A DNA stretch of 23,594 nucleotides from a virus (lineage: Duplodnaviria; Heunggongvirae; Uroviricota; Caudoviricetes). Of this stretch, positions 2,209 through 20,715 are shown one piece after another. The notes under the pieces are model-generated. The model did not search any database. It was not told where the DNA came from and saw only the letters and a program-made list of their open reading frames with translations. The stretch lies in the IMG/VR virus record IMGVR_UViG_2563366837_000008. One strand, written 5' to 3'. How positions within the stretch are numbered: position 1 is the first letter of the stretch; every line of letters begins with the position of its first letter. A program made the position numbers and the translations under genes.

Positions 2209-2279
2209 ACCCCGTCTCCCGTTATCCGGAAGCTGACAACAATAAAAAATATCCTCCGGCATAGCCGGAGGTTTTTCAA

Positions 2280-2990
2280 ATGCGCCTATAAGGCTCTCTT
2301 ACCAGCCGCGCCCTAACAGGCGCACACGATCTGACATTTGCATCCAACTTCGTTACTTACGGCCCGTAAACGGGCTGCCCGGATAGGGAATCGATAACTG
2401 CTCTCCCATTTTATCCTCTTCAAGCTGGTGCTTTATGTAATCCTGTATCTTCGCCGTGTTCTTACCCACCGTATCGACGTAGTACCCTCTGCACCAGAAC
2501 TCCCTGTTCCTGTATTTGAATTTCAAATCACCAAACTGCTCGTAAAGCATCAGACTGCTTTTCCCTTTCAGATATCCCATAAAGCCGGATACGCTCATTT
2601 TGGGCGGGATCTCCACAAGCATATGGATATGATCTGCACAGCATTCAGCTTCCAGAATCCGTACACTTTTCCACTCACACAGCTTTCTCAAAATACTGCC
2701 TATTGCTCTACGCTTCTCTCTGTAGAACACCTGTCTTCGGTATTTTGGCGCAAAAACTATGTGATATTTACAGTTCCATCGGGTGTGCGCTAAGCTCTTT
2801 TCGTTCCCCATTGGGACCCCCTTTTGATTTCTTGTTTGACACTTGCAGTTGCCAGACCGCAAGGTGTTTTAACAAATCAAAAGGGGTTTTAATAACTGGC
2901 TTAAAGCTGAAAGCTTTCCGGAACCCCCAGCCTAGCTGGGGGTTTTCTGTGCACAAAAAAAGCCACCAGTTAAGTACTGATGGCTCTGAT
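2280..2990 (-). mobile_element. IS200-family insertion sequence (IS200/IS605 group), about 0.7 kb; boundaries approximate
   Basis: Contains a 152-aa IS200-type TnpA; perfect hairpin ACCCCCAGC-CTA-GCTGGGGGT followed by TTTT at 2923..2946 upstream of tnpA, the characteristic IS200 left-end structure. Exact ends not determinable by eye. Confidence 0.6.
2353..2811 (-). CDS. tnpA: IS200 transposase TnpA (HUH/Y1 single-strand transposase), 152 aa
   Basis: MGNEKSLAHTRWNCKYHIVFAPKYRRQ... with the HUH motif (HIHMLVEIPP) and catalytic Tyr region; the track ORF starts 17 codons upstream at an alternative start. Confidence 0.9.
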   Translation of the reverse strand: MGNEKSLAHTRWNCKYHIVFAPKYRRQVFYREKRRAIGSILRKLCEWKSVRILEAECCADHIHMLVEIPPKMSVSGFMGYLKGKSSLMLYEQFGDLKFKYRNREFWCRGYYVDTVGKNTAKIQDYIKHQLEEDKMGEQLSIPYPGSPFTGRK

Positions 2991-5637: not shown

Positions 5638-5865
5638 CAGAAAAGCCCCTCCGGAGAGGGGCTGGAGAGTGGCGCTATGTGCCATTGCATGGTGCCGGGT
5701 GCCTCCCGGTGAATTCAGTACCAGCACCTGAATCCGCGATTATCCCATATACCTACTCGCTGATTGCCCCTCCGCACAGGGGGATTCACCATGCCAGTTT
5801 CTTTTAACAAACTCCCCGCAAACCAGACAACAGTCAACCGCCTGAATTGTGAGACATTTAAAAAA
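5638..5865. repeat. Non-coding direct repeat unit B (paralog of unit A), ending on the - strand in the same GC hairpin plus U-tract (5644..5663)
   Basis: See unit A; roughly 65-70 % identity overall by eye, with near-identical hairpin cores. Confidence 0.6.
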
Positions 5866-5897: not shown

Positions 5898-5974
5898 TGG
5901 CGCGTTGTACTGGATTCGAACCAGTGACCGATTGCTTAGAAGGCAATTGCTCTGTCCGGCTGAGCTAACAACGC
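5898..5974 (-). tRNA. tRNA-Arg (anticodon UCU), 77 nt
   Basis: Hand-folded cloverleaf: acceptor GCGTTGT/ACAACGC, D stem GCTC/GAGC, anticodon stem ATTGC/GCAAT with loop CTTCTAA, T arm ACTGG-TTCGAAT-CCAGT, discriminator G plus CCA. Confidence 0.8.
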
Positions 5975-5987
5975 AGGATACAGATAA

Positions 5988-6064
5988 TGGACCGCCTTCG
6001 GGGACCCGAACTCCGCGCAACCAGCTTCGAAGGCTGGCGCTCTATCCTGATGAGCTAATGGCGG
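5988..6064 (-). tRNA. tRNA-Arg-like (anticodon UCG), 77 nt, with non-canonical features
   Basis: Anticodon stem CCAGC/GCTGG with loop CTTCGAA and D arm GCTC...GAGC are clean, but my fold has one acceptor-stem mismatch, one T-stem mismatch and T-loop TTCGGGT (G at position 58). Could be functional or degenerate. Confidence 0.5.
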
Positions 6065-6071
6065 TATGTGA

Positions 6072-6147
6072 TGGTGGCCCTTGCTGGATTTGAACCAGCG
6101 ACCTGGCGATTATGAGTCGCTCGCTCTCACCACTGAGCTAAAGGGCC
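6072..6147 (-). tRNA. ileZ: tRNA-Ile2 (anticodon CAU, lysidine-type; reads AUA), 76 nt
   Basis: Near-identical to E. coli ileX by memory (GGCCCTTTAGCTCAGTGGTGAGAGCGAGCGACTCATAATCGCCAGGTCGCTGGTTCAAATCCAGCAAGGGCCACCA); first tRNA downstream of Q, as ileZ is in Stx phages. Confidence 0.8.
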
Positions 6148-6187: not shown

Positions 6188-6595
6188 TCATCCGTTCTGG
6201 CTGACTAAATCCTGTACTTCCCGAACCGTCTGCTCAAAACGTTCAGTCTCCAGCTCAACGCCAATTGCACGACGCCCGAGCGCCAGTGCCGCTTTCACTG
6301 TCGAACCCGACCCCATGAAAAAATCTGCAATCAGGTCACCCGGACGACTGCTAGCGCTGATTATCTGCTGCAGCATTTCTGCCGGTTTTTCGCACGGATG
6401 TTTCCCGGGATAGAACTGCACCGGTTTATGCGTCCAGACATCGGTATACGGCACCTGCGCCGTCACGCCAAAATACCGCCGCAGTCGGCATTCACAACCA
6501 CCAGCGCATTTAACGTTCAGGCACAAAAAAAACCGCTCATCGGCGGGTTTAAGCTGTGTGACGAAGTAACTACTCTTAACAGCATAACCAATTTT
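6188..6595 (-). pseudogene. C-terminal remnant of an N6/N4 DNA methyltransferase (PF01555-like); N-terminal catalytic half missing
   Basis: Contains the AdoMet-binding end (HPCEKPAEMLQQIISASSRPGDLIADFFMGSGSTVKAALALGRRAIGVELE) but no upstream DPPY/DPPW block; the frame is open only about 23 codons upstream of the track start, then hits a stop and AT-rich DNA. Confidence 0.6.
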
Positions 6596-6976: not shown

Positions 6977-8059
6977 ATGAAAAAATTAACAGTGGCAATT
7001 TCTGCTGTAGCTGCATCAGTACTGATGGCGATGTCTGCTCAGGCAGCTGAAATTTATAATAAAGACAGTAACAAGCTGGATCTATACGGGAAAGTTAATG
7101 CCAAGCACTACTTCTCCTCTAATGATGCAGATGATGGTGATACTACTTATGCCCGTCTTGGCTTCAAAGGTGAAACCCAAATCAACGATCAACTGACTGG
7201 GTTCGGTCAGTGGGAATATGACTTCAAAGGCAACCGTGCTGAATCTCAAGGTTCTTCCAAAGACAAAACCCGTCTTGCATTTGCAGGCCTGAAATTTGGT
7301 GATTACGGCTCAATCGATTACGGCCGTAACTTCGGTGTAGCATACGACATCGGTGCGTGGACTGACGTCCTGCCAGAATTCGGTGGTGACACTTGGACTC
7401 AAACCGACGTGTTCATGACTCAACGTGCAACTGGTGTTGCAACTTATCGTAACAACGACTTCTTTGGTCTGGTCGATGGCCTGAACTTTGCTGCTCAGTA
7501 TCAGGGTAAAAATGACCGCACTGACGTAGCTGAAGCCAATGGTGATGGTTTCGGTTTCTCCACTACTTATGAGTATGAAGGATTCGGCGTGGGTGCAACC
7601 TATGCTAAATCAGATCGCACTGACGGTCAGGTCGCCTATGGTAAGAGCAAATTCAATGCCTCCGGCAAAAATGCGGAAGTATGGGCTGCAGGCCTGAAAT
7701 ATGATGCGAACAATATCTATCTGGCTACCACATATTCTGAAACTCAGAATATGACCGTTTTTGGTAATAACCATATTGCAAACAAAGCACAAAACTTTGA
7801 AGCAGTAGCACAATATCAGTTTGACTTCGGTCTGCGCCCATCTGTTGCTTACCTTCAGTCAAAAGGTAAAGACCTTGGTGTTCATGGTGACCGAGACTTA
7901 GTCAAGTATGTCGATGTCGGTGCTACTTACTACTTTAATAAAAACATGTCCACTTTTGTTGATTACAAAATCAACTTAATTGACGATAGTAAGTTTACCA
8001 AAACAGCTGGTATTGATACCGACGACATCGTCGCTGTAGGTCTGGTTTATCAGTTCTAA
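6977..8059 (+). CDS. nmpC: Prophage-encoded general porin of the OmpC/OmpF/PhoE family (NmpC/Lc-like), 360 aa with signal peptide
   Basis: [23 protein letters not shown] signal peptide then [16 protein letters not shown]... and C-terminal ...VAVGLVYQF; AGGG RBS 8 nt upstream. The track ORF starts 20 codons earlier (6917), which I reject. Opposite orientation just downstream of Q, as nmpC in DLP12. Confidence 0.85.
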
Positions 8060-8246: not shown

Positions 8247-8630
8247 TCAATTAGAATTATTAGCAACGATATCCATATCTAACCGGATATCTAATGCCAT
8301 TAACATCCCTTCAATTATGCCCTCAGCCTTCTGTAACCTTTTCCCGATATAACCATCCGAGCAGCAATGCTTACTTGCCAGTGACATGAATGTCATACCA
8401 CATACATAATAATCTACTAATAAATCGTGTAAATCGCTGTTGTTCTTTTTCAGACGGGCCATGCACCCGCAAATGATCATCGCGTCATCGTCACAACATT
8501 GCGGGCGAGATTTTACTTTTGAAGGAATTAATCCCTTAAAACCGGCAGCAATGGACGACCAGGTCACATCCTCATGATTATTTGCCGCCCATGCTCCCCA
8601 GCGTTCGAGAACCATCTGAATATCACGCAT
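8247..8630 (-). CDS. Q: Late-gene antiterminator Q (small PF06530-type, QuuD/QuuQ-like), 127 aa
   Basis: [35 protein letters not shown]...[16 protein letters not shown]; the track ORF starts at an upstream TTG (8645), the ATG at 8630 is the likely start; followed by a terminator-bounded leader, then late genes. Confidence 0.75.
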
Positions 8631-8647: not shown

Positions 8648-9643
8648 TCAGGACAGCACACCAATCGCCAGCGCGCGATCGATAAAACGAAATATCAGCT
8701 CCAGTTGGGAACCATACTTCTCTTCAAATGCCACGGTATCCGCATGCAGTCCGTCATGGTGTTTTCTGCACAAAGGCAACACAAAAAGGTCATGCGCTTT
8801 TGTACCCATTCCACCCTAACCATGACCAATCAGGTGATGAGGATCGTCGGCTGGCTTACCACAACATGCACACGGCTGCGTCTTAACCCAGCGCGTGTAC
8901 TTTTCATTAACCCAGCGACGACGTTTGGGGCGTAACATAAAAGACTCCGGCGACTCCGGATCCACTTTCAGCGCCAGCACCTTTTTCGCCTTATCCCGGA
9001 TGATGCTGGTGGCAGGAACCGAAGGCACAAGGTCACTTTCCCGGGTGACAGACGGCACAACAGGCTTCGGTAATCTCAGTGCCTTACGGGCTGCACTTTC
9101 CGGTAAGGCATCCGCCAGGTCATTACGAACCAGCCACCAGCACAGTTCCGGCATTGTCACAACGTGGCTGTCATCAAAACCGAGATCACGACGGACTACG
9201 GACAACACCCAGCGGGCACAGTTATCCGTTGCCATTGATTCCAGACGTTCCGTGAACTGATCGCGAAGCAGGTTATCGCAGTGCCAGCACAGACGGATTG
9301 CGCCCGGCGCGTGTCGCATTGTGGTCATGTTCTCGCTGTGCCATCCGGAATGAGGCCACTGGCAGCCTTTTTCACGAAGTAACCAGCTCTCAAGGCATTC
9401 CACGCCACCAGCACGACGGATCACCGCCTCATGGCGGAACACGGCCCGAACGGCAGGATCATCCGCCAGCGGTTGTGATGCTGCCGGAACGGCACCACTG
9501 GCAAAAGATGAATAACGTTCCGGCTCAGGCTCCAGCAGGACACGCCCCTGCATAAACAGGGGCATCAGCTCTGAACCGGGTCTGAACAAGACGATCCCCA
9601 TACGCGGGGCAATTTCAGGGGTCAGCAGTGCTCTCACGGTCAC
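8648..9643 (-). pseudogene. DUF968 (YdfU-like) prophage protein interrupted by an in-frame TAG at 8816..8818
   Basis: The track ORF ends ...CCGKPADDPHHLIGHG at TAG; the same frame continues for 55 codons ([55 protein letters not shown]) to a TGA at 8648..8650, just before Q. Hand-translated. Confidence 0.65.
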
Positions 9644-13243: not shown

Positions 13244-13539
13244 ACAACCTCCTTCCGCGGCATGAGAATTGTGTAGCCACGCGCAGGTTGTAGTCTGGCT
13301 TTTGCATCAATAGTAAGCGTTGCAATTTTTCGGATATGAAGATAACCAGCTCTTTCCAGTGCCAGGGTTTCCCTGAATATCGCTTGCTTAGAACAACAGC
13401 AGAAATCAGCAAGCACCTGATGATCAATAACTCTCTCGCCTTCACCGTCTGAAGAACCCGACATCAAAACACGCAACATAATCAGGCGCTGAATCGGGTT
13501 ATCGAAAGCACATCCGCACACAAACTGAAAACAGTTCAC
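13240..13539 (-). CDS. Hypothetical protein, 99 aa, possible winged-helix DNA-binding fold
   Basis: 4-bp overlaps with both neighbours; segment VIDHQVLADFCCCSKQAIFRETLALERAGYLHIRK looks winged-helix-like; no firm family assignment. Confidence 0.5.
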   Translation of the reverse strand: MNCFQFVCGCAFDNPIQRLIMLRVLMSGSSDGEGERVIDHQVLADFCCCSKQAIFRETLALERAGYLHIRKIATLTIDAKARLQPARGYTILMPRKEVV

Positions 13540-13760
13540 GCCACACCTCCCAGACGCTTAAACATTTTTCCAGACAGAAATACCGCCAGAGGGTAACTGA
13601 TGGTGTAGCTACGCCCCTGTAGTTCGCACACGACTTTCTGGCTTTCAGCGTTGACTAGGCAAACCCGCAGAACGTGACCGTTGCTGGTGGCGAACCACTG
13701 CCCCACACGGGGGCAACGGTTGTATCGGTGATACAGGGAATTAACGATGTGGCGGATCAT
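13536..13760 (-). CDS. Hypothetical protein, 74 aa
   Basis: ORF with 4-bp start/stop overlaps on both sides, consistent with a translationally coupled operon member. Confidence 0.5.
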   Translation of the reverse strand: MIRHIVNSLYHRYNRCPRVGQWFATSNGHVLRVCLVNAESQKVVCELQGRSYTISYPLAVFLSGKMFKRLGGVA

Positions 13761-20182: not shown

Positions 20183-20715
20183 GCGAAATTAATTACCAGT
20201 CACTGCGTGAGGTGGCGGAACGTGCAATTCCAGCAATGGAACGCCTGTTAATGTTGCCAGCTGATGATGATTTGTTAAGTGAACAGGAACTTAAAGATTA
20301 CGGTGTGGATATTGATGCGCTCAATGCCTTCAAATTTCTGACCGGACCAGAAACCGTGCTGGCACTACTGGATGAACGGGAAAGAAACCAGCAATACATC
20401 AAACGCCGCGACCAGGAGAACGAGGATATTGCGCTTACGGTTGGGAAGCTGCGCGTTGAGCTTGAAGCAGCAAAATCAAAACTCAACGAGCAGCGCGAGT
20501 ATTACGAGGGAGTTATCTCTGATGGGTGCAAGCGTATTGCTGAACTGGAAGCGCGGGAAGTTCAATTACCGACTCGCTACGACCTTCGATATGGACACCC
20601 GATAAATGCAGATGAGCGACAAGTCATGATACCTAAAGAAAATGGCAGTTGGCTTTACCTGATTGACCTAGAACACGCATTACGCGTCGCTGACATTCGT
20701 ATCAAAGGAGAGTGA
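20179..20715 (+). CDS. Ea22-like (Ead/Ea22 family) protein, second paralog, 178 aa, GTG start, coiled-coil
   Basis: N-terminus MSEINYQSLREVAERAIP; an identical AAGGAGG...CCAGTGAGC initiation context to the preceding paralog; 4-bp overlap with it. Confidence 0.6.
   Translation: MSEINYQSLREVAERAIPAMERLLMLPADDDLLSEQELKDYGVDIDALNAFKFLTGPETVLALLDERERNQQYIKRRDQENEDIALTVGKLRVELEAAKSKLNEQREYYEGVISDGCKRIAELEAREVQLPTRYDLRYGHPINADERQVMIPKENGSWLYLIDLEHALRVADIRIKGE

Follow-up and report, generated by a model that had tools for sequence, protein, structure and literature searches.

DUF968 proteins have been grouped with DUF1364/YbcO in group 7 of the His-Me finger (HNH) superfamily, and a role as recombination or repair nucleases, like NinG and RecA-dependent endonucleases, was proposed for them (PMC5714182). 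A zinc-finger HNH motif has also been noted at the DUF968 C-terminus (PMC4118853). Our literature search found no experimental paper on the DUF968/YdfU family. Here we analyze a member of this family that is interrupted by an amber codon. It is found next to the antiterminator gene Q in prophage DNA of 23,594 nucleotides (Caudoviricetes; IMG/VR record IMGVR_UViG_2563366837_000008), the whole of which is called the window. The best explanation, in which we have high confidence, is that the amber codon is a recent nonsense mutation by which an accessory phage gene lost its function, and that this is an ordinary pseudogene rather than a case of suppression or recoding.

Minus-strand translation from 9643 to 8648 yields 275 codons, a TAG, 55 codons and a TGA at 8650..8648. 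The TAG is the single internal stop, and it splits the gene as the first-pass annotation of this DNA had described. RefSeq places the start at GTG 9637, with an alternative in-frame GTG upstream at 9643. Numbered from the RefSeq start, the parts of the gene are:

9637..8648, minus strand: DUF968/YdfU-family gene, 329 codons when uninterrupted (RefSeq start and translation).
8816..9637, minus strand: 5' part of the gene, with the RefSeq start GTG 9637, 273 sense codons and the premature TAG.
8816..8818, minus strand (plus-strand 'cta'): amber codon TAG, codon 274, from CAG (Gln) by C-to-T at 8818.
8648..8815, minus strand: 3' remnant, 55 in-frame codons and the TGA, with the second HNH/His-Me finger half and the C-terminal helix.
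8807..8809, minus strand: in-frame ATG two codons past the TAG, with AGGGTGGA in front; gene callers predict the 53-aa ORF that begins here.

The 3' remnant harbors the motifs GGMGTK..HD..PLCRKHH..LH, including the CRKHHDGLH already pointed out in the first-pass annotation, and its TGA is followed 17 nt later by the Q start (ATG 8630). The chance of an unbroken run of 55 codons in random sequence is about 0.07. This stretch matches the C-terminus of the PHROG 96 'HNH endonuclease' profile (E 6e-26, profile positions 282-333 of 334), and the 5' part matches positions 1-278 of the same profile (E 1.8e-139). Because of the C-terminal match and the near-invariance of these residues among homologues, the open frame past the TAG is not due to chance.

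To identify the ancestral codon, the region was compared by megablast with 5,426 complete E. coli genomes, of which 4,664 contain homologous DNA. Two genomes, NMBU_W05E18 (pond water, Norway) and U1 (Japan), match the queried gene region at 100% identity. The TAG allele is already known, since the RefSeq pipeline annotates the gene in both as 'DUF968 domain-containing protein, pseudo, internal stop'. In AR_0013, CE10 (O7:K1), N32 and AF57, the sole difference over 1,800 bp is a C (sense strand) at 8818, and these genomes encode the intact 329-aa protein WP_001202272.1. Copies at 95-97% identity, which are more distant, have CAG as well. A C-to-T transition in the Gln274 codon thus gave rise to the TAG, on an otherwise unchanged background. 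A Dcm deamination hotspot was considered and rejected, as the site lies in TCAGG and not in CCAGG. In IMG/VR, the exact 29-mer around the site has 111 copies: CAG in 109 and TAG in two, the latter on contigs of the same prophage as in the window (99.9% and 99.6% identity). Full-length IMG/VR copies are intact in 51 of 53 cases; the broken two are the amber allele and an independent 1-bp deletion. This deletion (L011, IMGVR_UViG_2585427777_000019, around 5672..5700) gives stops at codons 269 and 314, near the amber site.

A protein search retrieved 1,635 homologues. The full-length ones have 329-330 aa and occur in Escherichia, Shigella, Salmonella, Kosakonia, Phytobacter and Citrobacter. GenBank phage and prophage records with full-length homologues include Stx2-converting phages, SfII, cdtI and ASU11, several of them annotated as ydfU or HNH endonuclease. 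We aligned 32 sequences, including 31 diverse homologues (68-98% identity). The alignment is colinear over the full length, with only two gap columns of one residue and one gap of three residues in a single sequence. All 31 homologues read through the position of codon 274, where the residue is Q, N or M; none ends there naturally. The 55 residues past this position are the best-conserved part of the protein, with G275, G276, T279, K280, H282, D283, P288, L289, C290, R291, H294, L297, H298 and D300 invariant. The invariant C256, C259, H268, C290, H294 and H298 and the near-invariant H267 and H293 are divided by the stop, half of them lying beyond it. One shorter protein (P0027, 272 aa) was considered as a natural short isoform and rejected; it belongs to a different allele, is cut off by the end of its contig and ends one residue earlier.

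With Q restored at position 274, the protein matches Pfam DUF968 over residues 162-328 (E 2.8e-80; 268.8 bits, against a gathering cut-off of 27.8) and PHROG 96 from end to end (E 1.6e-177), with a weak match to HNHc_6. Both fragments match DUF968 in the precomputed annotation. Model score and colinearity thus place the gene in the DUF968/YdfU family (PF06147), in which its interrupted frame makes it a pseudogene member. A structure model was made on an intact homologue (P0004, 98% identical, same numbering). The beta-beta-alpha-metal fold of the His-Me finger was recovered, and the catalytic His and the Cys/His zinc ligands are conserved in the alignment. A strand (286-289) and a helix (291-299) are found within the region past the stop, and codon 274 itself lies between the two finger halves, in a loop that is rich in glycine and modeled at low confidence. 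With the same high confidence as the explanation of which it forms part, we assign the C-terminal ~75 residues to a zinc-stabilized HNH (His-Me finger) nuclease domain like those of P1 Ref and YbcO, nuclease activity being a prediction. A single-protein sequence search of the PDB gave chance zinc-finger matches only and was set aside; a profile search gave a weak match to YbcO, and fold comparison was needed. The 273-aa product keeps C256, C259, H267 and H268, whereas C290, H293/H294 and H298 are lost with the helix that bears them, as are the second strand and the GGMGTK..HD loop. Since the second half of the HNH motif lies beyond the TAG, this product should be inactive, with an incomplete zinc site and the catalytic metal unbound in the modeled fold.

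The N-terminal half (residues 1-160, about 9637..9160, minus strand) has invariant residues of its own, C92, H96 and H100, followed by C117-W-H119-C120-D121. Judged by its sequence, this Cys/His pattern appears to be a second zinc or HNH-like motif. It lies outside the Pfam model (162-328), and no part of the structure model is better predicted than this half. In PHROGs, the N-terminal 134 aa and the C-terminal 71 aa of the protein each form a family of their own (phrog_11007 and phrog_23141), and annotated phage genomes therefore contain the gene repeatedly in fragmentary or split form.

The 273-aa truncated product is called on 329 contigs, and the index gives 549 blocks of the collection for it. 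For the 53-aa ORF past the stop and for the exact intact allele, the counts are 313 and 375 contigs. The order DnaC-like gene, DnaB-like gene, 85-aa ORF, split DUF968 gene and Q recurs in seven more carrier loci (NCBI, ENA and Logan), with a porin gene after Q wherever the contig reaches that far. Over 1.8 kb, these seven are identical except for one locus with 1 substitution and 1 single-base insertion and another with ten N bases. NMBU_W05E18 belongs to serotype O86:H18, ST38 and phylogroup D (PMC7311804). The TAG allele is fixed in a heavily sequenced E. coli clone (ST38-type). The lack of further change downstream of the stop fits a recent origin of the allele; it does not bear on selection either way, as the flanks are just as free of change.

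A sequencing or assembly error that hides an intact gene would likewise leave a difference of one base from intact copies. The same base, however, occurs in two complete genomes that were sequenced independently (Norway and Japan), in an IMG draft genome, in contigs derived from metagenomes and in assemblies from NCBI, ENA and Logan, besides the 329 contigs with the truncated call. Recurrence in so many independent assemblies therefore rules out an assembly error, and the probability left to this explanation is close to nil. The first-pass annotation had offered, as the alternative to a pseudogene, that the strain suppresses or reads through amber. A host amber suppressor tRNA of the supE or supF type would give efficient full-length protein; supE would even insert Gln, the ancestral residue, and such alleles exist among sequenced E. 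coli (155 supE-type glnV/X(CTA) records). The three tRNAs of the window do not include a CTA anticodon, as had been noted before. Perfect matches to supE were listed for 60 of the 155 records, mostly recognizable K-12 laboratory strains or derivatives; as this search was inconclusive alone, the glnU/W/V/X operon was read directly in NMBU_W05E18 and U1, and all glnV and glnX copies have the anticodon CTG. In a search by allele sequence, full-length supF tyrT(CTA), supP leuX(CTA) and supU trpT(CTA) were found in none of the 5,426 complete genomes, and supD serU(CTA) in a single record, the unrelated strain DSM 498. In the records inspected (60 for supE, one for supD), no RefSeq feature is annotated beneath the suppressor tRNA. 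The reading of glnV and glnX covers two matching hosts, and the window itself comes from a third strain. Thus the tRNA with a CUA anticodon on which a suppressor-dependent amber allele relies was found neither in the window nor in the matching hosts nor, for this clone, by the allele searches, tyrU, ochre-type and plasmid- or other-prophage-borne tRNAs not being examined. We regard a host suppressor as highly improbable. Programmed read-through or recoding as the normal expression of the gene would agree with a frame that is open and conserved past the stop. A recoding signal is expected to be conserved, however, and the position holds a sense codon in 31 of 31 homologues and CAG in 109 of the 111 IMG/VR copies. 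No stimulatory RNA structure was found past the stop, where the RNA folds no better than shuffled sequence (minimum free energy -31.4 kcal/mol, shuffle mean -28.4, z -0.93). To our knowledge E. coli has no pyrrolysine system, which also counts against recoding, and we give this explanation almost no weight.

Another explanation retains the stop and saves the function. Translation would terminate at the UAG and restart at ATG 8809..8807, and a 273-aa protein and a 53-aa peptide would reassemble into an active or attenuated nuclease. This ATG, which lies 6 nt past the stop with the purine-rich AGGGTGGA in front, is a possible but unproven reinitiation start for the C-terminal peptide. The break falls in the low-confidence loop between the finger halves, PHROGs keeps the two ends as separate families, and the downstream ORF is unchanged in 10 of the 11 carriers compared. 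However, the spacing from the Shine-Dalgarno-like run to the ATG is short (~4 nt from the AGGG core), the zinc site would need to form across two chains, and the split is limited to one clone and kept in no divergent lineage. The separation into two PHROG families may come simply from fragmentary gene calls, and an unchanged downstream ORF is what a recent origin predicts, the flanks being unchanged too. We consider a working two-piece nuclease very unlikely, if the least unlikely of these alternatives. Slightly less credit is given to the idea that the allele is attenuated and not dead, with trace read-through by tRNA-Gln, restoring the native residue, or restart at the ATG giving a low level of nuclease. 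If this were true, a low level could be selected, full activity being costly to the lysogen.

The pseudogene explanation accounts for these observations. A C-to-T transition would have turned the Gln274 CAG into UAG, and release factor 1 would end translation after Gly273. The mutation probably arose once, on the background common to the intact copies, and was then inherited by the ST38-type clone; a single origin and inheritance by a much-sequenced clone would therefore explain hundreds of assemblies without further decay. Q has its own ribosome-binding site 17 nt past the old stop, and its translation should therefore not depend on the broken gene. Rho polarity on Q was considered and rejected. 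The 185 nt that would no longer be translated are richer in G than in C (C/G 0.59), unlike a C-rich Rho loading site, and strong polarity is therefore not expected. Promoter and terminator scans gave background only.

The lambda nin region is dispensable for lytic growth. The DUF968 gene lies between the replication genes and Q, in a nin-like region of a lambdoid prophage, and this correspondence by position suggests that its loss is likely tolerated. Other genes of the same prophage are also defective in RefSeq: a partial ead/Ea22-like gene, a frameshifted small ORF and a 5'-truncated methyltransferase. An insertion sequence (IS) remnant lies just beyond the edge of the window (RefSeq). Several broken genes fit a gradual decay of the prophage, although the annotation shows its genes for replication, lysis and terminase as intact. 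Together with the one-base change from CAG, the continuing homologues and the RefSeq 'pseudo' label, they bear out the first-pass suggestion of a nonsense pseudogene in a decaying prophage. The neighboring features are:

8247..8630, minus strand: antiterminator Q (quuD), intact, with its own Shine-Dalgarno GGAGAAAG (Pfam Phage_antitermQ, E 7.7e-54).
5898..6147, minus strand: cluster of three phage tRNA genes with anticodons TCT (Arg), TCG (Arg) and CAT (Met/Ile); UAG can be read by none of them.
13536..13759, minus strand: frameshifted small hypothetical gene (RefSeq annotation of the identical genome).
20235..20549, plus strand: partial ead/Ea22-like gene (RefSeq annotation of the identical genome).

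The CAT-anticodon tRNA (6072..6147, minus strand) is called Met by ARAGORN and Ile by RefSeq in NMBU_W05E18 and MMC-J-0078, with Met at the equivalent site in APEC 16-1068. It is probably a phage ileZ-like lysidine tRNA. A full-length gene for an OmpC/NmpC-type porin (6977..8059, plus strand; Porin_1, E 7e-151) lies just downstream of Q on the opposite strand, and the 5'-truncated DNA methyltransferase gene (6188..6484, minus strand) is beside it. In related prophages (L002) the methyltransferase is intact and the porin is absent at the corresponding place. An IS200-family element (2250..2954) was found between the SASA esterase and holin genes, with a Y1 transposase ORF (2356..2862, minus strand; PF01797, E 5e-38). 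It is absent from NMBU_W05E18 and U1, both otherwise 100%-identical complete genomes, and the window therefore represents a third strain of the same clone.

The amber allele implies no new biology. At most, the TAG is a handy single-base marker for the ST38-type clone and its prophage. As a natural knockout, the allele could serve to ask what role the DUF968/YdfU nuclease has in the growth of lambdoid phages.

The allele is similar to the classical CAG-to-TAG amber mutations, in which one C-to-T turns a Gln codon into UAG and a supE host would restore Gln. The difference is that it occurs naturally, in a wild clone where no suppressor was found, at a TCAGG site. Among proteins, YbcO of the DLP12/phage 82 prophage (DUF1364, PDB 3g27) differs from the DUF968 protein in being a single domain of 96 residues, with a weak sequence match (E 0.49). 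The HNH (His-Me finger) domain is like that of phage P1 Ref (PDB 3plw), for which RecA-dependent HNH endonuclease activity has been described. Ref is small, however (solved chain of 109 residues), while the DUF968 protein has an N-terminal extension of ~250 residues with its own invariant Cys/His motif. K-12 ydfU shares the last third alone, at ~86% DNA identity. The closest relatives are the YdfU (Qin)/PF06147/PHROG 96 proteins, which the window copy resembles in its match to the full profile, in its length of ~329 aa and in its position directly upstream of Q, as in lambdoid, Stx-converting, SfII and cdtI phages. It differs from them in the TAG at codon 274, and residues 1-273 alone are expected to be made.
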